Positions 10,320 through 63,201 of a stretch of DNA of 64,000 nucleotides are shown piece by piece (positions within the stretch are counted from its first letter, which is position 1; each line of letters starts with the position of its first letter). The notes beneath the pieces were generated by a model. That model did no database searches, had not been told where the DNA came from, and saw nothing but the letters and a program-made list of their open reading frames with translations. Source of the stretch: a virus. The stretch lies in the IMG/VR virus record IMGVR_UViG_3300046170_000173. One strand, 5' to 3'. The position numbers were made by a program, and so were the translations under genes.

Positions 10320-13300
10320 GTGTCAGCATCTAGTATACCACTAAAACTTCAAAATGCTAATGGTGACCTACAAGAATTCACTCCATCGGATGAGCTTTAT
10401 CTATCCTTTGCAGTGGGACAAGCATTAGTTGCGGCCGCTTCTAATGACGTTGGTAATATCAGTTTAACTGATGGCCAATCAATCGGTTCGTTTGTAGATT
10501 CTTACTACAATGAAATATCTGGCACCCACCCTGCTTCACAAATAACGGGTGCCTCAGTGACCACCACTCTGAAGCAAGTGAGTGGCCCAGCAGACGAATC
10601 CGGTGCAGACTTTGTCCGCCCAGTAGGTTATTACGACGTTGATCCAAACCCAGGCTTCTACGAAATGGTAGATGGGGATATGGACAACCTAGCAGGTCGT
10701 GTTCTGTCTAACTTAGTACAGAACGACTATATCGGTACTTTCAAACTGTCCGCTACTCAACCAAGTGCAGACTATACAAAGTTTATTGACTCTGTATTCT
10801 CTGACACTCATGGTAACGGTGGGGCAGGTACCGTAGTAACAAACTATCACATTTGGATGCGTACTTCTATGACGGCAGTTGCTCCAGTTCGTCCAGTAGC
10901 GACAAGCTACGACGGTTCTGGTTTCAACGGTCTACGTGAAATGACGGATGCGCAGATTCAGTACACACTGGGTCAACGTATTAAGTCAATGCGTGCTACG
11001 TCAGGAGCGATTGGTTCATACCAGTTGCGTTCCACAGCACAAGGCGCACCGACAGTCCCAGGCTCATGGTTGCCTGTAGGTACTGCACAGAACACACGTC
11101 GAACTCCAGTTGATGTTGCATACGCAAGAACTCGCGTATCTTCATACAACCGTGCACGTGTTTCTGCATACACTCGTACTCGCGTATCTTCATACACGCG
11201 TAATAGTGTAAATACATTTAGTCGTACCTTTGTAGGAGACTACACTGGTGCATATTCACGCGACTTCGTAGGTAACTACTCGCGTGACTTTGTTGGGAAC
11301 TACTCGCGTACTCGCCCATCATCGTACTCAGGTACATATGCAAGAACTCGCGTATCATCGTTTGCACGTACTCGTTTAACAGCGTTTACTGGATACTTTG
11401 CGGGAACTTACTCACGCGCACGTGTTTCAGTTTATACACGTAACCGTGTAACACCATTCACTGGTACATTCTCACGTAACCGTGTTTCAACATACACTCG
11501 TGGTCGTGTATCATCTTACGCCGGTACTTATTCTCGTAACCGCGTTTCTTCATACGTTGCAGACTATACACGCAACCGTGTTTCAACATATTCTGGAACA
11601 TATTCGGGCACTTACTCCCGTCTACGTGTTTCTGCTTATTCTGGAACATACTCGCGTAACCGTGTTTCATCTTATGCTGGAACATATACGCGCACACGTG
11701 TATCTACTTACGCAACTGACTTTACCCGCACCCGTGAAGAGAACTTCGCAGGGACTTACACTGGTTACTATACTGGCGTATTCTCTCGTGCTCGTGTATC
11801 AACATATACGCGTAACCGTGTAACAGGTTTCGCAGGTAACTTCATTGGTAACTACTCTCGCAACTTCCAAGGTAACTATTCGCGTAACTTCGTGGGTAAC
11901 TACTCTCGTGGATTTGCTGGAGATTACGTAGGTAACTACTCTCGCGTATCAACACGTACATCAACTCGCACACGTTACAGTGCTTACGCAAGAACACGCA
12001 TCACTAACTATGTTGGTGACTTTACTCGTGATCGCGTCACTAACTTTGCGGGTAACTTTGTGGGCAACTATGCTCGCACCTTCGTAGGAAACTACGGTGG
12101 TAACTTTATTGGAAACTACGCTCGTGACTTCGTTGGAAACTTCGTTGGAAACTACGCTCGCGCATATGTAGGTAACTACTCTCGCGGATTCGTAGGTAAC
12201 TACGGTCGTAACTTCCTTGGAAACTTTGTCGGAAACTACAGTCGTAACTTCCTTGGTGACTTCACCGGAAACTACGCTCGTGGTTTCGTCGGTGACTTCG
12301 TTGGAGATTTCGTAGGTAACTACGCACGTACTTCAACTCGTACATCGACTCGCACACGTTACTCTGCATATGCTCGTACTCGCGCAACGAACTACACTCG
12401 CAACCGTGGTTCTGCTTACGCTCGTACATCTACTCGTACTCGTTACAGTGCATACGCAAGAACTCGTGCAACAAACTATACAAGAACTCGTGGTTCAGCT
12501 TACGCACGTACTCGTATCACTAACTACGTTGGTGACTTCGCGCGTACATCTACTCGTAGCAGACCATCTACGTTCTCTTATGCACGTACTCTATACTACG
12601 CAGGTGACTTCGTAGGTAACTATGGTCGTACTCGTGTAACAAACTATACTCGTGCTTCAGCGGTAGGCGTGACCTATACAGGTAACTACACACGTAACCT
12701 ATACTACGTTGGTAACTATGCTCGTGGATATGCAGGCAACTTCGTGGGTAACTACACACGTAACCGTGCATTTTCATACGTAGGTGACTATGCTCGTAAC
12801 CGTGCATTCTCATACGCAGGTAACTACACACGTACTCGCGCAACAAACTACACTCGTAATAGAGTTGTTGCTGGTAACTCTACTCGTGTAAGCACAAACG
12901 GTGCTGGTTTTGTTGGTAACTTTGCAGGTAACTATGCAGGCAACTTTGCTGGTAACTTTACACGATCTACATCATCAACACGTACATCAACACGTGTTTC
13001 TACTGGTGCTGGTGGTCAGGTAACCAACGCATATTCCGGAAATAACTGGTCGTTAACTACAGGTTGGCGTTCGGATAGTGAAGGTGGAACCAATTTTGTT
13101 ACCGTTTATATTAATGGAACTTTAGTTGGAGGCATGACAGGAAGCGGAACATCTCTGACTGCTGGCGGTGTAACATATTATCGTGCTGCTTGGCGAAACA
13201 CGAATGGATTCGTATCACATTATGGTGTTACTTACCAATCGGGTGGTGCCTCTTATACTGGTAACTTTACTGGTAACTTTACAGGAACTGCTACTTACAC

Positions 13301-40831: not shown

Positions 40832-41278
40832 ATGCTTAATATTGAAGTGATACACAAGGAGTGGACAGAGGACTCTGTTATTCCTATGCACCAACTGGAT
40901 GAGACATCACGTCAAATCCCCATGCTACACGCAAAGTATTTAGAATACCTCACCGTAACCAAACTTACCCTACGTCGCGCAGAGGCGTCACAGAAGATCC
41001 TGTTGAAGGAGAAGTGGTTGTACTACAACGGTAAGATGGACCCACAGACTCTACAGGAGAAGGGGTGGGATCCAGATCCATTCAACGGTCTCAAGATTCT
41101 CAAGGGTGAGATGGACTACTATTACGACTCCGACCCAGAGATCTCTAAGTCTGAAGACAGAATCGTCGCACTTAAAGCACAGATAGATAGTCTTACAGAT
41201 ATTCTTAACATGATCAAATGGAGGCATTCGACGATCAAGAACATGATTGATTATCGTCGATTCGAGGCTGGTGGATAA
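40832..41278 (+). CDS. uvsY: Recombination mediator UvsY
   Basis: IPMLHAKY, KWLYYNGK, YYDSD; synteny with uvsW. Confidence 0.85.
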   Translation: MLNIEVIHKEWTEDSVIPMHQLDETSRQIPMLHAKYLEYLTVTKLTLRRAEASQKILLKEKWLYYNGKMDPQTLQEKGWDPDPFNGLKILKGEMDYYYDSDPEISKSEDRIVALKAQIDSLTDILNMIKWRHSTIKNMIDYRRFEAGG

Positions 41279-42794
41279 CAAGATTCGCATTAGGATGAAA
41301 GACTACTCCCATTTTATGGTAGAGGCCCATCCAGCCCAAGAGAATGAGTTGAAGGAATACTTCTCGTTCTTTGTTCCTGGCTACAAGTACATGCCTGCAT
41401 ATAAGTCTCGACATTGGGACGGAAAAGTCAAACTCTATAACATGATGACTAAACAGATGAACGTGGGTCTCTACACGCACCTACGGAAGTTCTGCGCGGA
41501 TCGTTTCTACCCACTGGAGATTGTTGAACATGAGACTTATGGGATTCCTTCGTTCCGTGAAGACATCGACCATCCTGCCCTTATTGACTTTCTATCTCTG
41601 CTTGATGCTCCTTTTAAGCCACGAGACTATCAATACAAGGCAATTTCTCATGGGGTGGAGCACCGAAGATGTATCCTTCTTTCTCCCACTGGTAGCGGGA
41701 AGTCATTTATTATATACAATCTTTTACGGTATTGCTACGAAGTCACCGAAGGAAAAATCTTAGTCATCGTCCCAACCACGTCTCTGGTGGAGCAGATGTA
41801 TAAGGACTTCGAGGAATACGGTTACGACGTAGAAGAGTTCTGTCATCGTATCTACTCCGGTAAGGAGAAGGTTACGGACAAACGTGTCATAATATCTACA
41901 TGGCAATCCATTTACAAATTCGGTAAGGAGTGGTTCGAACAGTTCGAATCAGTCTTTGGTGATGAGGTCCACCTGTTCAAGGCGAAGTCTCTGACTACCA
42001 TGATGGACAAGTGTGTCAACGCAAAATACCGTTTCGGTCTTACGGGTACTCTCGATGGGACGGAGACAAACAAACTGGTTCTGGAAGGTCTGTTTGGACC
42101 TACGTTCACTGTTACACGAACGATTCAACTCCAGAAGGAAAATCAACTCGCAGACTTGGATATCTCTGTTCTCCTCTTGAGGTATCACAATGATGTCTGC
42201 CAACAAGTCAAGGAGATGACGTATCAAGAAGAGTTAGATGCGATCGTCACCTACGAACCCCGTAATCGATTTATCAGTAAACTGGCAATTGATCAATCGG
42301 GAAACACCCTCGTGATGTTCCAATTTGTTGAGAAACATGGTAAGGTTCTGCACGAGATGATCAAGTCTATGGCTGAAGAAGGACGTAAAGTATTCTACGT
42401 ATCTGGTGAAGTAGATGCCACAGACAGAGAACAAATAAGAGGGATAGTAGAAAAGGAAAATGATGCAATTATCGTTGCTTCTCTTGGTACTTTTAGTACT
42501 GGTATTAACATCCGCAATCTTCATAATATTGTATTTGCGACACCATCCAAGTCTCAAGTCAAAGTACTCCAATCGATTGGTCGTGGTCTTCGTAAGTCTG
42601 ATGATGGTCGGACTACTAGACTTTTTGATATTGCTGATGATCTTCATATTAGGAGTCACAAAAACTTTACACTGAAACATAGCGGTGAAAGGATTAAGAT
42701 ATATACTAAAGAGGGATTTAGATATAAGATCTATCCCATAAACTTAAAACCAATAAGAGTGGAACAAGATGTCGAAAGCAATCTCTTCGGTTAA
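41271..42794 (+). CDS. uvsW: SF2 helicase UvsW
   Basis: PRDYQ, SPTGSGKS, DEVH, GLTGT, QSIGRGLR; GTG start at 41271 chosen from the GAGG RBS. Confidence 0.93.
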   Translation: MDNKIRIRMKDYSHFMVEAHPAQENELKEYFSFFVPGYKYMPAYKSRHWDGKVKLYNMMTKQMNVGLYTHLRKFCADRFYPLEIVEHETYGIPSFREDIDHPALIDFLSLLDAPFKPRDYQYKAISHGVEHRRCILLSPTGSGKSFIIYNLLRYCYEVTEGKILVIVPTTSLVEQMYKDFEEYGYDVEEFCHRIYSGKEKVTDKRVIISTWQSIYKFGKEWFEQFESVFGDEVHLFKAKSLTTMMDKCVNAKYRFGLTGTLDGTETNKLVLEGLFGPTFTVTRTIQLQKENQLADLDISVLLLRYHNDVCQQVKEMTYQEELDAIVTYEPRNRFISKLAIDQSGNTLVMFQFVEKHGKVLHEMIKSMAEEGRKVFYVSGEVDATDREQIRGIVEKENDAIIVASLGTFSTGINIRNLHNIVFATPSKSQVKVLQSIGRGLRKSDDGRTTRLFDIADDLHIRSHKNFTLKHSGERIKIYTKEGFRYKIYPINLKPIRVEQDVESNLFG

Positions 42795-43272: not shown

Positions 43273-43713
43273 ATGAAAATAGGCTTCACATGTTCAACGT
43301 TCGACCTTCTACACGCAGGTCACGTCCAACTTCTACGTCACGCTAAAGATCGGTGTGACTACCTGATAGTAGGTCTACAGACAGACCCCACCATCGATCG
43401 TCCCAACACCAAAAACAAACCCATACAGACTTTGGTTGAAAGATACACTCAACTGAGGGCGGTTAGTTATGTCGATGAAATTATCCCATACCAAACGGAA
43501 CGAGATCTCGAAGATATTTTGTCTCTATATAATTTGGATGTTCAGATATTGGGCGAAGAATATCGTGAGAAGGATTTCACCGGAAAGGATATCGGTCGTA
43601 AACGGGGAATAGAGTTTTATTTTAATGAAAGATCTCATAGATTTTCTTCAAGTGAATTGAGACAAAGAGTCGCCTATAATACAGGAATTGGGTTGACATA
43701 TAAGTCAAAATAA
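43273..43713 (+). CDS. Glycerol-3-phosphate cytidylyltransferase-like (TagD family)
   Basis: STFDLLHAGH (HxGH), LIVGLQTD, VDEII, RFSSS. Confidence 0.85.
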   Translation: MKIGFTCSTFDLLHAGHVQLLRHAKDRCDYLIVGLQTDPTIDRPNTKNKPIQTLVERYTQLRAVSYVDEIIPYQTERDLEDILSLYNLDVQILGEEYREKDFTGKDIGRKRGIEFYFNERSHRFSSSELRQRVAYNTGIGLTYKSK

Positions 43714-50698: not shown

Positions 50699-51095
50699 TC
50701 TAGTTCAGTGGAACTCAGAGATGATGTTAGAGATCACCCTAGCAGAACCTGATGATTTCCTAAAAGTTAGAGAAACCCTTACCAGAATAGGAGTTGCATC
50801 AAGACGCGACAACACCCTATTTCAATCGTGCCATATCCTACATAAACAGGGTAGGTACTTTATCGTCCATTTTAAGGAGTTGTTTTTACTGGACGGCAAA
50901 AAGTCAAACTTAGAAACGACGGACATGGAACGTCGTAACACGATCGCAACCCTTCTACAGGATTGGGGTCTGGTATCAATCGTAAACCCAGAAGTTGCAC
51001 AAGATTGCGCTCCTATGCGACAGATCAAAATAATTTCGTATAAGGAAAAGTCAAAGTGGAATCTGCAACCGAAATACAACATCGGTAATAACTAA
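50685..51095 (+). CDS. regA: Translational repressor RegA
   Basis: DDFLKVRETLTRIG, QSCHILHKQGRYFIVHFKELF. Confidence 0.95.
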   Translation: MEENNLVQWNSEMMLEITLAEPDDFLKVRETLTRIGVASRRDNTLFQSCHILHKQGRYFIVHFKELFLLDGKKSNLETTDMERRNTIATLLQDWGLVSIVNPEVAQDCAPMRQIKIISYKEKSKWNLQPKYNIGNN

Positions 51096-51637
51096 TGGCG
51101 AAAGAATATTATGACATTTTTGAAGGTCGCGAAGACAATATTCGCGACAAAGTCCCATTCATAGGTCGACTTCCTTTTGATATGGAGTCGAACTATGGGT
51201 GGACGCAGTTCATGGAAATGATGGACTCGCATCCAGATGACCTATACGATCGTAACTCAGATAAGATGCGTATTGGTCTTAATGCTTTTCATTCTCGCGG
51301 CAGTGCGCCAGAGTTTGCAAAGAACATTTACGAAGAAATGCAAGAAGTATTTTCACTTCACGAAAACAAGATCACTAACATTGCGTTTAGTGGATTTGGT
51401 CGTGCTAGTGGATCTTATCCTTGGCATAAGGATTCGATGGACGTATTCTTGGTTCAGGTTATCTCTACCGTGGGTCTCAAAGTAGAACACATTAATAACG
51501 AGGAACCTTTTGATTTCGAGCCAGGCATGTTCGTCTATTTGCCAAGGGGAACCCATCACCAAGTATTCCCAAGGGTGTCTCGTGTTTCTTTCTCGTTCGG
51601 TGTGGAGGGTGATCCGGACCCATCAAAATACTACTAA
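51095..51637 (+). CDS. JmjC/cupin-like 2OG oxygenase
   Basis: WHKDSMDVFLVQ, PGMFVYLPRGTHH, RVSFSF. Confidence 0.7.
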   Translation: MAKEYYDIFEGREDNIRDKVPFIGRLPFDMESNYGWTQFMEMMDSHPDDLYDRNSDKMRIGLNAFHSRGSAPEFAKNIYEEMQEVFSLHENKITNIAFSGFGRASGSYPWHKDSMDVFLVQVISTVGLKVEHINNEEPFDFEPGMFVYLPRGTHHQVFPRVSRVSFSFGVEGDPDPSKYY

Positions 51638-52607: not shown

Positions 52608-52613
52608 ATGTGT

Positions 52614-53321
52614 ATGAACTACGATATCGACAAATTTAATGAATGTGGTTACGTTATAGTCACTGACTTTATGGATGAGACACATCACTGGCGTCTCAAT
52701 ATGGAGTGTGATATGTATCGTGAGTTTGCTTGCGGATTGGTTCGCAACGATCACGGGTGGATATTGAATTCTCCAAATAACCCCTGTAAACTAGACGGTG
52801 CTATGATGCGCAGTCATATCTTTCGAGATCTAGCCTCTAATGAGACATTGGTGTCTACCGCCCAACAATTATTGGACATCGAAGATCTCGACACCTACAT
52901 ATCTAAGTTTTTTCCTATGGTACCCAGAGAGGGATTCTCTGTTGGATGGCACCAAGACAACCACTACATTCGTGCAAACGCAAAACGACTAGTCAGTTGT
53001 GACGTATTCGTTAACGGCGCGGACAAGGAAAATGGATGTCTGAGAGTCGTCGCTGGATCTCATAACCGAACCTTCCTACATAACGATAAATCGCATGATG
53101 CGTTCCGATGGATTCATGTTGATGAGTCTGAAATGGACATAACCGACATCGAGTTAGACAAACCATTCGCTGTGTTCTTCCACGTGGATCTGGTACACGG
53201 TTGTTATAGAAACAAAAGTGACAGACATAGGTACAGTATTGCGTGGGAATACATACAGAGAGGGTATGTCCCACAAACACATAAAGATCACCAATCACAA
53301 GACAGGCTCCCCGTACTATGA
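52614..53321 (+). CDS. PhyH-family 2OG-Fe(II) dioxygenase
   Basis: GYVIV, WHQD, NGCLRVVAGSH, FFH..LVHG..N.S...R. Confidence 0.85.
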   Translation: MNYDIDKFNECGYVIVTDFMDETHHWRLNMECDMYREFACGLVRNDHGWILNSPNNPCKLDGAMMRSHIFRDLASNETLVSTAQQLLDIEDLDTYISKFFPMVPREGFSVGWHQDNHYIRANAKRLVSCDVFVNGADKENGCLRVVAGSHNRTFLHNDKSHDAFRWIHVDESEMDITDIELDKPFAVFFHVDLVHGCYRNKSDRHRYSIAWEYIQRGYVPQTHKDHQSQDRLPVL

Positions 53322-54159: not shown

Positions 54160-56631
54160 ATGAGTAAATTTTATACATCCGTGTTGCGAATGGGCAACAA
54201 CATACTGTATCGCGGTTACGACAACGGTCGTCAAATTAAACTGCGCGTACCCTTCAAACCCAAACTCTATGTTACCGGAAACTCTCCGTCAGACTGGAGA
54301 ACCCTAGACGGCACTTCCGTGATGGAAATGCAGTTTGACTCGATGAAGGAGGCTACGGAATTCACCAAACAGTATCGAGATGTCTCCAACTTCAAGGTCT
54401 ACGGTATGACCAACTACGCGATGCAGTTCATCGCGGAGACCTTCCCTAACGACATCAAGTTCGATCGCGAACAGGTTCGGGTACTTAACATCGATATTGA
54501 GGTCGCGTCCGACCAAGGGTTCCCATCACCAGACATTGCGGAACATCCGATAATTTCTATCTCAATACGCAACAACGATGGTATGTATTGGGTCTGGGGG
54601 CTCAACGACTACACGCCCACGCGCGAGGATGTTCTGTTTATCAAGTGCGACAACGAGGATGATCTACTGCGTAAGTTTGTAGACCACTGGGTCACCTACT
54701 CACCCGATATCATCACCGGATGGAACACACGATTCTTCGATATCCCCTACATCGTCAACCGATGTTACCGAATGTATGGTGACGACACGTTAGTAAAACG
54801 TCTCTCACCTTGGGGTGCGGTGCGTGAACGTGTACAGAAGATCAATGGGCGTGACAATCAAGAATATATCATTGAGGGTGTCGAACATCTCGACTATCTT
54901 GAGGTCTTCAAGAAATTCACCCTGAACACTTTGGGACAACAAGAGTCATATCGACTTGACCATATCGCCCACGTCGTCCTAGACGAACGCAAACTCTCAT
55001 ATGAGGAACACGGAAACCTACACACTCTCTATCGTGAGGACTACCAGAAGTTTATTGACTACAACGTCAAAGACGTGGAGTTGGTACACAAACTCGATGA
55101 GAAACTCGACCTTATTTCTCTGGTTCTGACTATGGCGTATCGCGGTGGTGTGAACTACGGAGACACCTTGGGTACCACGAACATTTGGGACTCGATCATC
55201 TATCGACTTCTGAATAAGAACAAGATCGCAATCCCACCCAAGACCGAAAAACCGAAGACTCCATATCCAGGCGGTTATGTTAAAGAACCACAGGTAGGAT
55301 CGCATGAATGGGTCACCTCGTTCGACTTGAACTCTCTATACCCGAACATCATTGTTCAGTATAACATGTCTCCAGAGACCGTTATGGACGGTCTGGTGGA
55401 CGTATCGGTAGAGTCTTTCCTTGATGGTCAACAGATACAAGGTGAAGGATATTCCCTCGCGCCCACGGGTGTGCGATTCTCTCACGAACGCAAAGGTGTG
55501 ATCCCGCAGATCATTGAACAGTACTATGCAGAACGTCGGATCATCAAGGATCAGATGCTCAAGTTGGATCAAGAGTATCAGAACAATCCGTCCAAGTCTC
55601 TTCAGTACAAGATCACATCACTAAACAACCAACAGATGGCGATCAAGATCCTAATGAACTCACTCTATGGTGCGTTGGGTAACAAGTGGTTCCGTTACTT
55701 TGATCAACGGGTCGCCGAGTCTATCACGATGGCAGGTCAGTTGGCAATCAAATGGGCAGAGAGGGCCGTTAATAATGAAATGCAAAAAATACTTGAAACA
55801 GAAGAAGACTATGTGGTGGCAATTGATACGGACTCTGTTTATATTAGGATGGGGTGCCTTGTTGACAAGTTTGCTCCTAAAAATCCAGTAAAGTTTTTAG
55901 ACAATATTTGCCGAGAACACTTTGAAAAAACACTTGATGAGTCATACGCAAAGATGGCAGAGATCACAGGTGCATATGTCAACCGCATGGAGATGGGTCG
56001 TGAGGTTATCGCAGATCGTGGGATTTGGATGGCGAAGAAACGATACATCCTAAACGTCCACAACAATGAAGGTGTCCAGTACACAGAACCTAAACTCAAG
56101 ATGATGGGTATCGAAGCGATCAAATCTTCCACTCCGCAGGTCGTCCGTGATAAGTTCAAGGAGATCTTCCGCGTCATTGTGGAGGGTACTGAGACTGACA
56201 CTCAAGGATATATTCGAGACTTCCGGTCCCACTTCAAGACTCTGCCTCCCGAAGATGTGTCTTTCCCTCGTGGTGTTTCCAACCTTGATAAGTGGATCGA
56301 CCGTGAACATGTTTTTAAGAAATCATGCCCGATTCACGTGCGTGGCGCGTTGACCTATAACAACGCGATCAAACAGAACGATCTCACCACACGTTATGAA
56401 AACGTGACGACCGGAACCAAGATCAAGTTCTGTTACCTCAAACTGCCTAACCGATTGGGACAGAACGTCGTATCGTTCCCTCTCAATCTACCCCCTGAAC
56501 TCGGTCTACACAAGTTCGTAGACTATGACATGATGTTCGACAAGACCTTCCTTGACCCACTGGAACCGATCCTTGATGCGGTCGGGTGGAAGGCAGAACC
56601 AGCCGCAACCCTTGAGGACTTTTTTGGATGA
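54160..56631 (+). CDS. gp43: Family B DNA polymerase gp43
   Basis: DIEV exonuclease motif, [30 protein letters not shown]; C-terminal clamp peptide LEDFFG. Confidence 0.97.
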
Positions 56632-56996
56632 TTACTGATTTCTGTGTAATATGTGGTACGAAGGATGATCTTCACGTCCACCATATTGTTTGTAAAAAAA
56701 GTGTACTGAAACCTGTATCTGGCGATTATGATGACCCTACAAATCTGATAACTCTTTGTGTCGAACATCATGGGTGGATACATGGTTTGAAACCTAATAG
56801 ATTCAATAACCACCATAATCTAACAAGAAATGGTGTAGAGAGAGCAAAAAAGGAAGGAAAATATAAAGGACGCGCACCAACTGCGAGAAAGTTGGGTAAC
56901 CGCATTCAAGAACTGCATCTCGGAGGAATGAAACCCTCTGCAATTGCAAAGGAACTCAATATCGGAGTTGCGTCGGTTTATCGATATAGAACCTAA
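56628..56996 (+). CDS. HNH endonuclease with C-terminal HTH
   Basis: CVICG..DDLHVHH...[10 protein letters not shown]; YKGR...[15 protein letters not shown]. Confidence 0.8.
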
Positions 56997-57034
56997 AAAT
57001 GGGAATATTACCATAAAAAAGTTTTAAAAAAGTG

Positions 57035-57062
57035 TTGACTTTCTCTCATCCTTTGGTATAAT
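57035..57062 (+). promoter_or_regulatory. Early promoter cassette copy 1
   Basis: TTGACT-16-TATAAT; near-identical to 57864-57891. Confidence 0.7.
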
Positions 57063-57089
57063 GGGTACATAAAGTGATGAGAGATGATT

Positions 57090-57257
57090 ATGACTTACGA
57101 AGAAAAGATTGCAATGTACGATGAGAAGCTGAAGTACGAAGTGTGCCCGATGCGCATTCGTCAACTTGAGGGTCGAAAGTACACTTTGATGTTCGAAGAA
57201 GTTGAACGCCGCCTCAACGAGTTTGTTGGTCCTAAGATGGAGATCCCACTGCAATGA
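57090..57257 (+). CDS. 55-aa hypothetical early protein (not in ORF track)
   Basis: MTYEEKIAMYDEKLKYEVCP...; follows the promoter and GAGAG RBS; ATGA overlap with the next gene. Confidence 0.55.
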   Translation: MTYEEKIAMYDEKLKYEVCPMRIRQLEGRKYTLMFEEVERRLNEFVGPKMEIPLQ

Positions 57258-57832
57258 ATGTAACAAAGTCACAGATAGAACAATATGGTAAAGTGTTTAA
57301 GGATAGGTCGAATTCTTTCGATGATTGTGGAGACTTAGACCTCTTCATTCATCGTCATTTAAGAAACAACTCCTACTTCAGAGAATATATCACTTCCATT
57401 GTGGGAGAAATGTCCTTGACTGTCGGTCGTCATGTAGATGGTCAAATGGGTGTTGATTTGTCATTATTTAACCATGATACCGGAGAGCGCGTTCTCGATA
57501 TTGATCTTGAACGATGGAATGCATGGGGCACTGAGTGGCCAACTAACTATCGTTGGATACACGTCTTGGGTAGAAAGACAAAGTATGTTGAGTCCAATGT
57601 CCCTTTTTTATTCTGTCCCATGAGTCAAAATCGGGATCGTTTTTTAGTTGTTGATACCAAAGTGATCAAAAAGTATCCAGTTAAGAACAAGTATTTTGTC
57701 GGTAAAGGTCATAGTGATAATGTTCGAGAAGTACCAATGACTCAGGGATACATCTTTGGGTCGTATACTCTGAGAGAAAAGTCGCTTTTTAAGACTTGGA
57801 CAGAGACAGTAAATCTCTTCTCTATAATGTGA
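57254..57832 (+). CDS. Hypothetical protein (possible PD-(D/E)xK-like)
   Basis: 192 aa; GVDL...DIDLER weakly nuclease-like. Confidence 0.55.
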   Translation: MNVTKSQIEQYGKVFKDRSNSFDDCGDLDLFIHRHLRNNSYFREYITSIVGEMSLTVGRHVDGQMGVDLSLFNHDTGERVLDIDLERWNAWGTEWPTNYRWIHVLGRKTKYVESNVPFLFCPMSQNRDRFLVVDTKVIKKYPVKNKYFVGKGHSDNVREVPMTQGYIFGSYTLREKSLFKTWTETVNLFSIM

Positions 57833-57863
57833 CTTATTACCTAAAAAAAGTCACGTTTAAGTG

Positions 57864-57891
57864 TTGACTTTCTCTCATACTTTGGTATAAT
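57864..57891 (+). promoter_or_regulatory. Early promoter cassette copy 2
   Basis: TTGACT-16-TATAAT preceded by GTGACTT...AAGTCAC inverted repeat. Confidence 0.7.
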
Positions 57892-57920
57892 GGTTACATA
57901 AAGTCATGAGAGAGGTTGTT

Positions 57921-58106
57921 ATGGGATACAGAATTTTGAACATTTCAGATGAAACCCGCGAGAAGTATCAAGAGCGTGTGGGTCTGGAAGGTCCGTTTTT
58001 CTATGACGGTGATAGAGTCTTATATTATGATGCACGTGAAGGTGCCTATCTCGATCCCACTACCGACATGTACTTAACCTATGATGAATATCAGGAGTTT
58101 GTGTAA
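57921..58106 (+). CDS. Hypothetical protein
   Basis: GLEGPF...VLYYDAREGAYLDPTTDMY; GAGG RBS. Confidence 0.65.
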   Translation: MGYRILNISDETREKYQERVGLEGPFFYDGDRVLYYDAREGAYLDPTTDMYLTYDEYQEFV

Positions 58107-58627
58107 TGAGTAATTCAATTATTGTTGTTATCGCCACTCAGTTTCGTGAGAACTACGGTGCCCACGATTGGGACGGTGAGGGTTACTGCCCTCAACACTG
58201 GAAGTCTAAGGGTGGCGACACCTACTTCATTAACGCGTCGGCGGATGATATCGCCAACACTCAGTGGTGGGTCGACGTTGAGCGTTCTATCGAGCACTCA
58301 TCTGCATACTCTGAGGAGTACATCATCTCTGAGTCGGTCGTCGATCTTATCGACTTCCGTGAGGAAGACCACATCGAGTTCTGGGAGTCCGCGATCTACG
58401 CGTCGGTAGACTTCGGTCAGTTGTACTGCGAGAAGAAGGCACTCAACTTCGAGAACGAGGTTGTCGGTGTCCGTCGATGGGAACAGGACTCTATGGGTAA
58501 GGACGCATGTTCTCTCACGGACCTTGATGAACCTGTGCGCGAGGAATGGCGCGTCAAGAAAGAGATGGGTATGTATGGTGTCGAAGAACAGTTCGATGAA
58601 ATAGAGTCTTTACTGGGAGCCGCATAA
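58106..58627 (+). CDS. Hypothetical protein
   Basis: TQFRENYGAHDWDGEG.CPQHWKSKGG; AGGAG RBS. Confidence 0.7.
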   Translation: MSNSIIVVIATQFRENYGAHDWDGEGYCPQHWKSKGGDTYFINASADDIANTQWWVDVERSIEHSSAYSEEYIISESVVDLIDFREEDHIEFWESAIYASVDFGQLYCEKKALNFENEVVGVRRWEQDSMGKDACSLTDLDEPVREEWRVKKEMGMYGVEEQFDEIESLLGAA

Positions 58628-58632
58628 TCTTC

Positions 58633-58661
58633 TTGACACCAGAGGCTATATACTGTATACT
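58633..58661 (+). promoter_or_regulatory. Sigma70-type promoter for the MTase-CmoA pair
   Basis: TTGACA-17-TATACT. Confidence 0.7.
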
Positions 58662-58685
58662 AGTCGAAAATAGTAAAGGTATATT

Positions 58686-59834
58686 ATGAATTACTCCCCA
58701 TACACATTACAGGATGTCTATGACGCGGCATCCCAGAAAAAGTTCAACGTCATCTCCACCTTCGCCGGTGGGGGTGGTTCGTCTACAGGTTATCGCCTTG
58801 CGGGAGGAGACATCCTCGCTATCAATGAGTTTGTTGAAGAGGCACGAAACACCTATCAGGATAACTACCCAACAACACCCATTGTACCGGACGATATTAA
58901 AGAGTTAACCGGACAAACCTTCCTTGATCTTACAGGTCTCAAAAAAGGTGAACTGGATATCTTAGATGGATCACCGCCCTGTTCCGCATTCTCTGTTGCG
59001 GGTAAACTGTCACATTCATCTGACGGTAAACACTCAGATGGTTGGGGCCAGACCAAGACCTATTCGGACGGCAAGGTTGTCGAGAATATCGAAGATCTGT
59101 TCTTTGAGTTCTTGCGTGTCGCGAACGACATTCAACCCAAGGTTATCGTTGCAGAGAATGTGAAAGGTCTCACTGTCGGTGAGGCGAAAGAGTATTACAA
59201 TCGTATCCTGAATGAGTTTGAGAACATCGGGTACGAGGTCGTATCTGAAGTTATGGATTCACGCTACTACGGAGTATCGCAAACACGTACACGTGTGATC
59301 TTTATTGCAGTACGCAACGACGTTGCGGAAGAGGTGGGTCTTAATTTTTTGACAATGAACCACTTATTTCCTGCCCCATCGCGTGAGGTCATCCCGTTAA
59401 AGAACGCTCTAGTTAATCTGGAGTACGATGAAGATGAGGTAAAGGAACTAACAGAAAAGTTTGAAAGAACCGCATACTGGAAACAAACGGGATCTCAGAT
59501 GCCCACATATCCAGACAAAGTACTGACGGGTATGGACTATCATCCGAAGGGTCATCACTTCAATTTAAAACGTGTATCACTTGAGGTGCCTGCACCAACA
59601 CTAACCGCGATGGGTAATGGTAACTCGACTGCGGGTGCATTCCATTGGGCAGAACCAAGGAAGTTGACACTCGGCGAATTAAAGCGTATAATGTCTCTAC
59701 CAGATGATTTTAAACTTACGGGTAAGTGGAACCAGAAGGCAGAACGCATCGGACGCATGGTGCCTCCGTTGATGATGAAGTCGGTGGCAGAATCCGTATA
59801 TGAGAACGTGTTGAAGGTATACAATGAAAGATAG
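58686..59834 (+). CDS. C5-cytosine DNA methyltransferase-fold enzyme, probable carboxymethyltransferase
   Basis: Motif I FAGGGG, IV GSPPCSAFS, VI ENVKGL, VIII QTRTRVIF, IX RKLT..ELKRIMSLPDDF, X IGRMVPP (canonical GN is GR here). Confidence 0.85.
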   Translation: MNYSPYTLQDVYDAASQKKFNVISTFAGGGGSSTGYRLAGGDILAINEFVEEARNTYQDNYPTTPIVPDDIKELTGQTFLDLTGLKKGELDILDGSPPCSAFSVAGKLSHSSDGKHSDGWGQTKTYSDGKVVENIEDLFFEFLRVANDIQPKVIVAENVKGLTVGEAKEYYNRILNEFENIGYEVVSEVMDSRYYGVSQTRTRVIFIAVRNDVAEEVGLNFLTMNHLFPAPSREVIPLKNALVNLEYDEDEVKELTEKFERTAYWKQTGSQMPTYPDKVLTGMDYHPKGHHFNLKRVSLEVPAPTLTAMGNGNSTAGAFHWAEPRKLTLGELKRIMSLPDDFKLTGKWNQKAERIGRMVPPLMMKSVAESVYENVLKVYNER

Positions 59835-60546
59835 AGAGAGTTATAACAAACCAGACTTTAGTTTTGCCCACCGTGAGGAAGGATTCGATAATCACATCGA
59901 AAACTCGATTCGTGGTTACAGTAATCTACATCATGATGTCATAAAGTTATCCGAATACTTCGTCGAGGATCTAACCGACGTTGTCGACATCGGTTGTTCG
60001 ACGGGTAAGACTATCTACGAAATGATGAAACAGAACAATCGATTCGCACCTCTAGCACATTACTCTGGTATTGAGTACGCATCCGGATTTGTTGATGATA
60101 TGAATGCTCGTCACAAGCAGATTGATAATGAGGGTCTGGGTGATGTAGACTTTCATAACATGGACGTGCGTAACGCATCATTTGCAAACTGTTCTCTTAT
60201 CACTTCTCTGTTCACTTTACAGTTCATGCCCCCTCATTCACGACGTGACTTGATGAAGAAAATATATCACGGTCTGAACACAGGTGGCGCTTTCATATTT
60301 GCAGAGAAGACTATGGCGAGAGATGCTCGTCTTCAGGAAATCATGACGTTTCAATTCTATGACCATAAGTCTAAGAACTTTGAGGCGGAAGACTTGTTAT
60401 CAAAAGAACGGGAACTCCGCTCAATGATGAAATGTTGTACTTGGAGGGAATTGCACTCACTTTGCATGACCGCAGGGTTTGACTCTACGAAGATCCAACC
60501 ATTCTGGCAGAACCATCTATTTGTCGGTGCAATCGCCATCAAATAA
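59824..60546 (+). CDS. cmoA: CmoA-like carboxy-SAM synthase
   Basis: FDNHIENSIRGY, VDIGCSTG, LFTLQF, IYHGLNTGGAFIFAEK, FWQNHLFVGAIAIK match the CmoA layout. Confidence 0.75.
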   Translation: MKDRESYNKPDFSFAHREEGFDNHIENSIRGYSNLHHDVIKLSEYFVEDLTDVVDIGCSTGKTIYEMMKQNNRFAPLAHYSGIEYASGFVDDMNARHKQIDNEGLGDVDFHNMDVRNASFANCSLITSLFTLQFMPPHSRRDLMKKIYHGLNTGGAFIFAEKTMARDARLQEIMTFQFYDHKSKNFEAEDLLSKERELRSMMKCCTWRELHSLCMTAGFDSTKIQPFWQNHLFVGAIAIK

Positions 60547-60583
60547 ATGTGACTAATTACCAAAAATAAGTCACGATTAGCTG

Positions 60584-60611
60584 TTGACAATTCCGTCAGA
60601 TTTAGTATAAT
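60584..60611 (+). promoter_or_regulatory. Early promoter cassette copy 3
   Basis: TTGACA-16-TATAAT, same TGGTTACATAAA.TGATGAGAG leader and upstream GTGACT..AGTCAC. Confidence 0.7.
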
Positions 60612-60644
60612 GGTTACATAAATTGATGAGAGAGAGAAATTGAT

Positions 60645-61616
60645 ATGACCATTCCAAACATCCGATTAGTAGAAAGTCAGTATTGCGCTCCAGAATATGA
60701 TGGTTGTGAAATCATCGCTGCCGGTTGGGTCTCTATTGATGATATCCACCGTGGTCCTAACTGGGCTCGTGCCGGTGATTATGACGAAGAGAAAGTTAAC
60801 GAATTCCGAGAGATGATTGAGACTGGGTACTACATGCCCTATGCTCATGAAGCCCCTGTCACTGAGTACGTCAATGGAAAGTTTGTCCTTTCTATGGGGA
60901 ACCATCGGCATCAAGGTCACCTTCGAGCCAACCAAGAAGAGATGTTTGTTTGCGTCGTGAACTGGAGAGACGAAGAGTCTAAACAGGTTGCAATGTCATG
61001 TGAGAACGGTAACATTTCTCCTCGTTACACTAAGAACTACCGAACTGTTGCTGACATTGTTCAGAGTGCTTCTAAGATCTTGAACATTCGAATGGTTAAC
61101 GGTACGATCTCTAAGATCAACGAAGAATCGATTGACGATGTCCTCAAGACGTTGAAAGTCACTCAGAAGGAAGGTCTCGTTGAGGTACACTCATCTCTGA
61201 TGGCAGATCATCACGTGCGACAAGGCGTTAAGAAGTATTCTCAAGATTGCATTGAAGATTATGTATCTAGTAACTCAGATCTCTTCGGAGACTCTCTAGT
61301 GGTTCCTCAATTGTTCCGTGACAAGGCCAGTAAGGCAGGTTATCGTGCGTTAGTTAACATGTCTCTGTCGTGTCTCGATTTGATAGAGTCTGGTCAAGAC
61401 CTTCCAGAGGTCTTGAGGGTCGCCGGAGCTTTCACTAATGTTACTGAGAAGAATCTTACTTCTGCCCGTGCCGCTGCGCGTGAAGATCTAGTTCGTCAAC
61501 ATCGAGTTCTTCAACGATTAGGTACTTTCTTGACTTCTGAACAGTTTGTAGTTCCTGAACTCCACGAAGTTCCTCAGTTACATGGTGTTGAGCTTGACGA
61601 TACTGTTGTTGCATAA
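60645..61616 (+). CDS. Hypothetical protein with ParB/Srx-like N-terminal domain
   Basis: APV....GKFVLSMGNHRHQG motif. Confidence 0.55.
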   Translation: MTIPNIRLVESQYCAPEYDGCEIIAAGWVSIDDIHRGPNWARAGDYDEEKVNEFREMIETGYYMPYAHEAPVTEYVNGKFVLSMGNHRHQGHLRANQEEMFVCVVNWRDEESKQVAMSCENGNISPRYTKNYRTVADIVQSASKILNIRMVNGTISKINEESIDDVLKTLKVTQKEGLVEVHSSLMADHHVRQGVKKYSQDCIEDYVSSNSDLFGDSLVVPQLFRDKASKAGYRALVNMSLSCLDLIESGQDLPEVLRVAGAFTNVTEKNLTSARAAAREDLVRQHRVLQRLGTFLTSEQFVVPELHEVPQLHGVELDDTVVA

Positions 61617-61689
61617 TGTGAATATTTACACTTGACTTTTTCTCAAATAGAGTTATAATGAAAGTGTAAATTGAGTTGAGGGATTGAAT

Positions 61690-62223
61690 ATGATGACAAA
61701 ACGAGATCGAACATTCTATACTGTATTTTGTGCCATGCGAGGCCTCTACGAAGATTGGAAAGACGATAGTCAGATGATATGTCGTCGAACCATCACTCGT
61801 TTTTTCTACGAGGGAGTGGCCAACATATCTACCGGATACGTGTCTGTCGCTGCCAAGAATGCGAAGTCAGGCGAGAGAACTCAAGATCATTTTGCTGGTC
61901 CTCAATGGATCGGCCGGTTCATTATGGATAATGGTCATATCTACTTGGAAGATTTCATTAAGTTCAAGAAGATTGCAGAGTTTGCATCACAGACTATTAC
62001 TGTAACTAAGAAAGAGAATACTATACTTCGAGATCAGACTTCTGTTATTTCTGACATCGATGGAGTTTCGGTCTTCATCGAAACCCCCATGTTAGAGAAA
62101 TATAAAGAGGCAGGTATTGTTTTAACACATAAAGAGTTCGAGAAGCAACCCGCACATAAGTGGGGTTTTCCTCTCGAAGTTCCTAGAGAGCTTTTAGATT
62201 ATGAGTCGAAGTTTTTACGTTGA
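61690..62223 (+). CDS. Hypothetical protein
   Basis: Own promoter TTGACT-16-TATAAT at 61632-61659; TQDH...TITVTKKEN. Confidence 0.6.
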   Translation: MMTKRDRTFYTVFCAMRGLYEDWKDDSQMICRRTITRFFYEGVANISTGYVSVAAKNAKSGERTQDHFAGPQWIGRFIMDNGHIYLEDFIKFKKIAEFASQTITVTKKENTILRDQTSVISDIDGVSVFIETPMLEKYKEAGIVLTHKEFEKQPAHKWGFPLEVPRELLDYESKFLR

Positions 62224-62249
62224 CAGATACGCTAAGTTTGTAGTATAAT
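62220..62249 (+). promoter_or_regulatory. Sigma70-type promoter for the primase-like gene
   Basis: TTGACA-18-TATAAT, 7 nt before ATG 62257. Confidence 0.65.
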
Positions 62250-62256
62250 ACGTCCC

Positions 62257-63201
62257 ATGTATGAACTAACTCTATTCAAAAATCAGTTTGATAATAAGAC
62301 ACATCGACGAACCACCTTCTTTAATTGGTTGGACTTCGTGGTGTGTCTTCGTGATTCCTACACAAAGCCGGGAGAAAAAGGTGGACCCAATAGTTCTCCT
62401 CTTCTTACTCCTGCTGTGTTCGACGTGGGTTCGACGCGTAGTAACAAATCTGTTCTTTATTGGAGTCCTTGGTGTTGCGTTGACGTGGATGACCCTATTG
62501 ACGGCTGCGGTGATATTGAGTCCCTAAGAACGTGGTTGAACCGCAAGTACGGTCAGTATGACTATGTCGTCTACAACACAGCAAGCAGTTCAGAAGAGCA
62601 TTTAAAGTTTCGAATCATATTCCGTCTCGACGAACAGATCGAGAACAATCGCATCAAGGCGTTCTGGCACGCTCTCAATACCGAACTGGGTGAACTGGGA
62701 GATCCGCAGACCAAAGACCTCGCGCGTATGTATTACGTACCCGCGCAATATCCTAATGCCTACTCGTTCTTTATGGTCAACTCTGGAGGGTCTGCACTTA
62801 ATGTTTCTGAGTTGATCGCGAAGCATCCCTACGTCGAAAAGACAGGTAATTCTTTCCTAGATAGATTACCACCAGAAATGCAGAAGGCGGTAATTGAACA
62901 TCGTAAAAATGGACTAAATAACACCGACTACCGATGGACATCTTATCGGGATTGTCCTTTCTGGCCAAAGAAAATGGGTGCAGAATATCAGACGATTTCT
63001 GGGACAGGTTGGTATTCAAAGATTTATGCGATCATGGTCGCAATCGCAGGGAACGCATACTCGCGAGGGTATCCGATCACTGCAAAACAAATAGAAGAAC
63101 TTTGTAGAGAGTTCGACCGCGAAACGGGTAACTGGTATGGTAATAGACCACTGCATGTGGAGGCGGATCGCGCACTAGAATATGTTTATAGGAATGGATA
63201 A
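62257..63201 (+). CDS. AEP/PrimPol-like primase
   Basis: VDVDD catalytic motif, YNTASS....KFRIIF, DPQTKDLARMYYVP; helical C-terminal domain. Confidence 0.7.
   Translation: MYELTLFKNQFDNKTHRRTTFFNWLDFVVCLRDSYTKPGEKGGPNSSPLLTPAVFDVGSTRSNKSVLYWSPWCCVDVDDPIDGCGDIESLRTWLNRKYGQYDYVVYNTASSSEEHLKFRIIFRLDEQIENNRIKAFWHALNTELGELGDPQTKDLARMYYVPAQYPNAYSFFMVNSGGSALNVSELIAKHPYVEKTGNSFLDRLPPEMQKAVIEHRKNGLNNTDYRWTSYRDCPFWPKKMGAEYQTISGTGWYSKIYAIMVAIAGNAYSRGYPITAKQIEELCREFDRETGNWYGNRPLHVEADRALEYVYRNG

Follow-up and report, generated by a model that had tools for sequence, protein, structure and literature searches.

A 64-kb stretch of viral DNA (64,000 nucleotides (nt); IMG/VR record IMGVR_UViG_3300046170_000173, hereafter the window) harbors two overlapping genes, cmoX and cmoA, that very probably constitute a two-enzyme DNA modification cassette of the CmoA–CmoX type, with 5-carboxymethylcytosine (5cxmC) in phage DNA as the predicted product. 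All searches of this phage genome were carried out on the window. The homology, residue equivalence, gene arrangement and conservation that point to this assignment come from our own analysis, while the chemistry is carried over from published work on Synechococcus phage S-B43. A first-pass annotation had recognized a motif X Asn-to-Arg replacement in a methyltransferase next to a CmoA-like gene, and these features of the sequence alone were enough for the correct prediction of a non-canonical DNA modification system.

The CmoA/CmoX pair of phage S-B43 was described in December 2025 by Yang et al. (Nat Commun 2025, PMC12783734). SpCmoA makes carboxy-S-adenosylmethionine (Cx-SAM) from S-adenosylmethionine (SAM) and prephenate at 2.33 per second, and SpCmoX—a homologue of cytosine C5-methyltransferases (C5-MTases)—forms 5cxmC at GC sites with Cx-SAM only, the wild-type enzyme refusing SAM. 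The crystal structure of SpCmoX with Cx-SAM (8YF3) shows Arg350 in place of the Asn304 of M.HhaI and touching the cofactor carboxylate; an R350N mutant is inactive. A further enzyme, CmoY, which is homologous to asparagine synthetase, couples glycine to the carboxyl group of 5cxmC, and the glycine amide alone, not 5cxmC, was detected in S-B43 virions. The same authors retrieved 5,615 candidate CmoX genes (SPPC plus the R350 residue) from IMG/VR, UniProt and MGnify, on contigs that also hold 4,257 CmoA, 2,251 ligase and 1,660 ParBc-domain genes, the latter with no function assigned (PMC12783734). They drew the parallel between the CmoX Arg and the engineered M.MpeI N374K variant, left open whether CmoA depletes SAM, and provided HhaI blocking in vitro as the only anti-restriction data for 5cxmC (PMC12783734). 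The remark in the first-pass annotation that a natural phage CmoA–methyltransferase pair had been reported was therefore right, so that the finding is not new in kind and adds little beyond a study that already lists thousands of such genes.

The overlapping cmoX and cmoA genes

The protein encoded by cmoX matches the Pfam family DNA_methylase (PF00145) over its full length (E = 1.3e-53), as well as TIGR00675 (E = 7e-43). Each of the expected motifs could be located—FAGGGG (F26), SPPC (residues 96–99), ENV (157–159), QTRTR (199–203) and ERIGRMVPP (353–361)—and the enzyme is a complete C5-MTase, as originally annotated. When compared with the SpCmoX sequence of 8YF3 using phmmer, the match extended over residues 5–377 (E = 4e-153), with 63.7% identity to SpCmoX and 63.1% to the homologue from Synechococcus phage S-CRM01, and the catalytic Cys99 within SPPC aligned with C98 of SpCmoX. 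Both features by which Yang et al. selected CmoX genes, i.e., SPPC and an Arg at the R350 position, are present in the protein.

The Arg in question, Arg357 of ERIGRMVPP, is encoded by a cgc codon exactly where the first-pass annotation had placed it. In the phmmer alignments, R357 falls opposite R350 of 8YF3 and opposite the Asn in motif X of M.HaeIII (IGNAVP), an equivalence that had been put forward as something to be verified by alignment; R357 is thus the predicted counterpart of the Cx-SAM carboxylate contact of SpCmoX, R350, and of Asn304 in M.HhaI. The other named Cx-SAM contacts of SpCmoX (F25, E47, F48 and D69) are likewise kept as F26, E48, F49 and D70, and these four residues, together with C99, form invariant columns in an alignment of eight homologues. 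This conservation extends to a broader sample. A scan of IMG/VR yielded 256 CmoX relatives, 80 of which (74–100% identity) were kept for counts; locus labels of the form L### denote these and other related loci. SPPC, ENV and QxRxR were invariant across all of them (80/80), and an Arg occupied the R357 position in each relative examined for it (79/79).

The two open reading frames (ORFs) lie as previously delineated, with the ATG of cmoA at position 59824 preceding the cmoX stop codon (TAG, 59832–59834), such that 11 nt are shared. Of the 74 related loci with an identifiable cmoA, 72 have the same order, cmoX followed by cmoA, mostly with overlapping or abutting ends. CmoA is by a wide margin the best-scoring family for the 240-amino acid (aa) product, bearing out its description as CmoA-like, with matches to TIGR00740 (E = 4.3e-31), E. 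coli CmoA (4GEK, E = 1.5e-23) and phrog_4752 (E = 1e-56), and 53.7% identity to SpCmoA over 231 residues (E = 3e-77). Motif I reads DIGCSTG (residues 55–61), and F130, the counterpart of F133 in E. coli CmoA, is kept in 74/74 sequences.

The Cx-SAM carboxylate is contacted in E. coli CmoA by a single residue, Arg199, in a bidentate fashion, and the carbonyl of Phe133 contacts the methylene group (PMC4482062); we checked this residue numbering on the MG1655 gene. The first-pass annotation had voiced doubt as to whether the SKERELR segment of the phage protein aligns with QKRSMLE of E. coli, and the alignment at R199 is indeed ambiguous: HMMER pairs it with R196 of the window protein, MAFFT with the residue one column earlier. 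Position 196 varies within the phage clade (R, K, V, Y or S), with a Lys in the active SpCmoA, and R199 of the ELR segment, three residues further on, is an Arg in 44/44 unique phage sequences. This pattern points to the Arg in ELR, located about a helical turn away, as the probable functional one in phage CmoAs. The doubt is nevertheless harmless, since the window CmoA carries an Arg at both 196 and 199 and would therefore be competent under either assignment. More generally, phage CmoAs do not appear to keep, at the same position, the Arg to which carboxylate binding has been assigned in bacterial CmoA.

Orthologues with 54–64% identity have been proven biochemically, and the predicted chemistry—Cx-SAM synthesis by CmoA and transfer of a carboxymethyl group to cytosine C5 by an Arg-bearing C5-MTase—is therefore supported (64% identity for CmoX and 54% for CmoA; PMC12783734). 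According to the mechanism we propose, CmoA would convert SAM and host prephenate into Cx-SAM; Cys99 of CmoX would then attack a flipped-out cytosine at C6, and C5 would receive the carboxymethyl group from Cx-SAM, with Arg357 standing in for the usual Asn of motif X and holding the carboxylate of the cofactor. The resulting 5cxmC in phage DNA would probably shield it from host restriction, an anti-restriction role that we infer for this phage. Transcription of the two genes, which overlap at the level of translation, would start at an early-type promoter ahead of cmoX and probably also at one embedded in cmoX.

Several points weigh against this reading. The target recognition domain of C5-MTases lies between motifs VIII and IX, and this region is the most divergent part of the window CmoX with respect to SpCmoX. 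It also contains a 6-residue insertion after TLTAMG, and the window enzyme therefore cannot be taken to share the GC specificity of SpCmoX. Moreover, the window CmoA scores below curated equivalog cut-offs (108.4 vs 193.3 bits for TIGR00740; 88.7 vs 285 bits for NF011995). The biochemically proven SpCmoA also falls under them (115.6 and 102 bits, respectively), with E. coli CmoA at 455 bits, and the cut-off thus describes bacterial CmoA rather than the phage clade. The chemistry of this particular protein pair is, in addition, extrapolated from its S-B43 orthologues, and a CmoY-type ligase may be encoded elsewhere in the genome, outside the 64-kb window.

Coordinates of the cmoX–cmoA cassette, its key codons, neighboring genes and promoter-like sites within the window
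Feature	Position	Strand	Basis
cmoX, predicted DNA cytosine C5-carboxymethyltransferase, C5-MTase fold, 382 aa	58686..59834	+	PF00145; 8YF3 match; 63.7% identity to S-B43 CmoX
Codon cgc, Arg357 of CmoX motif X	59754..59756	+	Sequence; alignment to 8YF3 and M.HaeIII
cmoA, carboxy-SAM synthase homologue, 240 aa	59824..60546	+	TIGR00740; 4GEK; SpCmoA identity; phrog_4752
Codons of CmoA R196-E-L-R199, with two candidates for the counterpart of Arg199 in E. coli CmoA	60409..60420	+	HMMER/MAFFT alignment
ParB/Srx-fold protein, 323 aa, directly downstream of cmoA	60645..61616	+	phrog_1033 ParB-like, E = 9e-5; AlphaFold2 and Foldseek
179-aa protein, function unknown, partner of the ParB/Srx-like gene	61684..62223	+	50–55% identical homologues at four loci
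Sigma-70-type promoter-like site, TTGACA-17-TATACT, 25 nt before the start of cmoX	58633..58661	+	Consensus scan, 11/12 matches
Perfect TTGACA-17-TATAAT inside the cmoX coding sequence, 130 nt before the cmoA start	59664..59692	+	Consensus scan
Perfect TTGACA-16-TATAAT promoter-like site before the ParB/Srx-like gene	60584..60611	+	Consensus scan

Fate of the predicted modified base and the downstream gene pair

The S-B43 system prompts the question of which base finally resides in the phage DNA. A tblastn search with SpCmoY retrieved nothing from the 64-kb window (best E = 1.2), and Pfam scans of the genes in the island surrounding the cassette and of 20 further ORFs revealed no ligase, Asn-synthase, ATP-grasp or amidotransferase domain, the 20 additional ORFs yielding structural, replication and 2-oxoglutarate (2OG)-oxygenase families only. 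With the same SpCmoY query, 39 of the 80 related loci were seen to encode a CmoY homologue (38–52% identity) no more than 6 kb from cmoX, among them L009–L011, where CmoX is 96% identical to that of the window. CmoY was not found at L006 and L007, where the cassette occupies the same slot (cmoX–cmoA followed by primase, with the polymerase gene upstream in L007), nor in S-CRM01.

We tentatively consider that free-carboxylate 5cxmC could itself be the terminal mark in this phage. The cmoX–cmoA variant described here, ligase-free within 64 kb and belonging to a T4-like lineage with a polymerase distant from those of the cyanophages compared, is a candidate for unprocessed 5cxmC in virions. It is also possible, albeit doubtful, that 5cxmC is merely an intermediate, as in S-B43, and becomes amidated (e.g., to 5-glycylcarboxymethylcytosine) by a CmoY-type ligase encoded outside the window or by an unrecognized island enzyme. 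The frequent presence of CmoY next to cmoX, even at the 96% identical loci, and the exclusive detection of the glycine amide in S-B43 virions (PMC12783734) argue for such processing; the lack of a SpCmoY match and of ligase-type domains in the sequences scanned argues against it, as does the fact that the same-slot relatives and S-CRM01 also lack CmoY.

The gene directly downstream of cmoA encodes a protein for which a ParB N-terminal fold and a GxxR-type nucleotide-binding motif were identified through Foldseek and the conserved G85-N-H87-R88 segment. Its AlphaFold2 model (predicted local distance difference test, pLDDT, 87.5) matched KorB, ParB, Noc, the N-domain of pNOB8 ParB, the serine kinase SerK and sulfiredoxin, each with a Foldseek probability of 1.0. 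The family is small, with 39 representatives in 1.8 billion proteins, and N39, R42, G85-x-H87-R88 and H92 are its conserved residues; Pfam ParB_N is reached, weakly, by 2 of 36 members. The gene is of the ParBc kind noted by Yang et al. near many cmoX genes. A 294-aa gene that follows cmoA in L007 was considered as a potential relative and rejected, with an hhalign probability of 0.1 and a PHROG of unknown function as its sole match.

The 179-aa protein encoded next had no Pfam, PHROG or PDB-sequence match, its AlphaFold2 model reached a pLDDT of 60 with no Foldseek hit below E = 1, and an Atlas search returned unnamed viral clusters only. A DH...EN pattern had suggested an HNH-like nuclease, which nothing supports. 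A query with the single sequence found no homologous loci, and an alignment of four sequences of the family found four: the homologues (50–55% identical) lie directly after a ParB-like gene in L085, L086 and L088 and, with the partner alone, directly before cmoX in L089. A fixed partner accompanies the ParB/Srx gene found close to many cmoX genes. The two occur as a pair in T4-like viral contigs, also without cmoX, which was not present within the stretches available for L086 (8.8 kb), L088 (9.8 kb) and L085 (1.8 kb, which says little). Among the 80 closest cmoX loci, the pair occurs in L005 only, a 2.6-kb contig identical to the window. We further observed a Mom-like gene (PF25680) and a SET-domain gene 1–3 kb upstream of the pair in L086.

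Given its occurrence without cmoX in L086 and L088, and in a single one of the 80 cmoX loci, we treat the ParB–179-aa pair as a separate accessory module in a common hot spot. It appears unlikely that the two proteins belong to the modification system and act on carboxymethylated DNA, be it through recognition or through nucleoside triphosphate (NTP)-dependent activation of the carboxylate. Such a role would agree with the position of the ParB/Srx gene directly after cmoA, with the ParBc genes of 1,660 CmoX contigs (PMC12783734), with a fold shared by NTP-using ParB/Srx enzymes such as the serine kinase and sulfiredoxin, and with the partner abutting cmoX in L089. However, the pair occurs without cmoX in L086—where the Mom-like gene is nearby—and L088, L005 is the only one of the closest loci to have it, the partner has no known function, and the co-location may merely reflect a common hot spot beside the polymerase gene. 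We deem it very improbable that 5cxmC would be processed along an undescribed route in which the pair acts on the carboxymethyl group, for instance by NTP-dependent carboxylate activation as in sulfiredoxin or a ParB-fold serine kinase.

Finally, it is most improbable that the methyltransferase is an ordinary SAM-dependent enzyme producing 5-methylcytosine, with the CmoA homologue serving the supply of tRNA uridine-5-oxyacetic acid (cmo5U) or depleting host SAM as a counter-defense: both window proteins are known from sequence only, Yang et al. left SAM depletion open (PMC12783734), and related methyltransferases have other partners—e.g., the Melnitz enzyme (41% identity; Leu in motif X) next to a Tet/JBP oxygenase—but wild-type SpCmoX refuses SAM (PMC12783734), the Arg is invariant in the clade (79/79), the cmoX–cmoA overlap is conserved, and the best tblastn match of E. 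coli CmoB in the window was not significant (E = 0.015), which gives no indication of a tRNA role. SAM depletion could occur as an added effect, which would leave the Arg unexplained. The CmoA–CmoX cassette thus remains our preferred reading.

Promoter-like sites and genomic setting of the cassette

The window contains eight perfect promoter consensus sites, as compared with 0.04 expected by chance. The first-pass annotation had assigned one common promoter to both genes. This claim holds insofar as a promoter-like site precedes cmoX and no terminator-like site was detected on the + strand between the cmoX and cmoA starts, except for a weak match (59283–59296, 5 pairs) well inside cmoX; it has to be amended in that a second, perfect site is embedded in cmoX ahead of cmoA. 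The embedded site is formed by motif IX codons, those specifying KLT...RIM. Both of its hexamers are exact in 40 of 55 unique related genes sharing the peptide, and the Leu and Gly codons of the spacer vary freely, with 12 distinct spacers among the relatives that share this peptide. From gene-wide codon usage, the four constrained codons together would be expected at 0.0044, although these sequences are related and the counts hence do not represent independent events. The contrast between conserved hexamers and variable neighboring synonymous sites argues for selection on the embedded site, which is missing in S-B43, where cmoA is not located downstream of cmoX. The site is probably an internal promoter providing additional transcription of cmoA, and such extra transcription would fit a high demand for Cx-SAM.

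The window is a segment of a T4-like phage, as indicated by Pfam matches to portal, gp23 capsid protein, prohead protease, neck, sheath-stabilizer, UvsW and UvsY proteins. It is syntenic with Phage C48C1 (OQ984149), in which SbcCD, clamp, clamp loader, RegA and Hsp20 are annotated before a family B polymerase. The window polymerase is 85.6% identical to that of C48C1, and its identity to the polymerases of Melnitz and of the listed cyanophages (S-H35, S-B64 and S-MbCM6) reaches only about 46%. The slot between polymerase and primase is variable, as seen on comparing 56628–63201 of the window with 11476–12400 of C48C1 (L003), where it accommodates a single D12-class Dam methyltransferase; a suspicion that this C48C1 'DNA methyltransferase' might be ParB-like was ruled out by that class assignment. 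In the window, the slot is filled by a 5.6-kb island comprising, in this order, an HNH/helix-turn-helix (HTH) endonuclease-like ORF, four small ORFs, cmoX, cmoA, the ParB/Srx-like gene and the 179-aa ORF, and downstream of the island follow a primase (91% identical) and an epimerase (82%). Other relatives carry the cassette ahead of the polymerase gene, and it therefore moves between variable slots on either side of this gene. A megablast search of cmoX and cmoA against 50,697 phage records gave no match; the relatives were reached by protein-level searches.

Homologues of the small island ORFs travel with the cmoX–cmoA cassette. Four of these ORFs, of 57, 192, 66 and 173 aa, precede cmoX (57084–58627). 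Those of 57, 192 and 173 aa are without family assignment, and the 66-aa ORF matches phrog_13298, a PHROG of unknown function (E = 2e-9). Homologues of the 57-aa and 173-aa ORFs are found upstream of cmoX in L006 and L007, those of the 66-aa ORF downstream of cmoA in L023, L024, L026, L030 and L045, and one of the 192-aa ORF adjoins the ParB-like gene in L086. A 122-aa ORF (56628–56996) at the island's edge overlaps the polymerase stop codon with its start; its HNH endonuclease N-terminus and invertase-type HTH C-terminus make it look like a homing endonuclease.

Other genes of the window lie further away. A PhyH-family 2OG dioxygenase gene (52608–53321) came into question as a cassette partner because it is missing from C48C1, the nearest relative, and was dropped on account of its patchy distribution among cmoX loci (5 loci). 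A small JmjC/cupin-like protein (51095–51637) is conserved across the lineage, and a 146-aa cytidylyltransferase-like protein (PF01467, E = 1.6e-14; 43273–43713) is encoded between the UvsW helicase gene (41247–42794) and an SbcD-like gene.

Comparison with known systems

The closest characterized counterpart is the S-B43 system, with which the window shares SPPC, the carboxylate-binding Arg, the named Cx-SAM contacts and adjacent cmo genes in the replication module of a T4-like phage (64% identity for CmoX and 54% for CmoA). The gene order differs—cmoA–cmoY–cmoX in S-B43, cmoX followed by cmoA with an 11-nt overlap here—and S-B43 encodes the CmoY ligase that was not found in the 64 kb of the window. 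The 6-residue insertion in the motif VIII–IX region of CmoX and the probable embedded promoter before cmoA are the window's own with respect to S-B43, and the phage backbone is a different one, as seen in the approximately 46% identity to the listed cyanophage polymerases (S-H35, S-B64 and S-MbCM6).

Synechococcus phage S-CRM01 likewise carries a two-gene cassette with no CmoY within 6 kb on either side, its genes 148c/149c being annotated as a DNA-cytosine methyltransferase and a methyltransferase domain protein. The encoded CmoX (63% identity) has an insertion after TLTAMG at the same place as the window enzyme, and CmoA is 52% identical; this cassette differs in having cmoA before cmoX and is known from its genes alone. 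The engineered M.MpeI N374K variant of the Kohli laboratory (cited in PMC12783734) offers a parallel at the level of a single residue, as a basic side chain replacing the motif X Asn enables the use of Cx-SAM and the formation of 5cxmC. In that case, however, the basic residue is a Lys introduced by engineering and not a natural Arg, the target is CG, and the sequence is distant (4DKJ/8C56, E about 1e-9).

The CmoA/CmoB pathway to tRNA cmo5U in E. coli shares the CmoA chemistry predicted here (SAM plus prephenate to Cx-SAM), the conserved F133 and an Arg in the R199 region, but its acceptor enzyme is CmoB instead of a DNA C5-MTase; the phage CmoAs, moreover, score below the bacterial equivalog cut-off, and their invariant Arg is offset by about three residues in the alignment. 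Finally, Methylophilales phage Melnitz-3 (L004, 4010–6194) encodes a C5-MTase with 41% identity to the window CmoX, also directly after the polymerase gene. This enzyme has a Leu at the motif X Asn/Arg position and is followed by a gene for a Tet/JBP 2OG oxygenase, and it therefore represents a different route of cytosine modification that employs a related methyltransferase.

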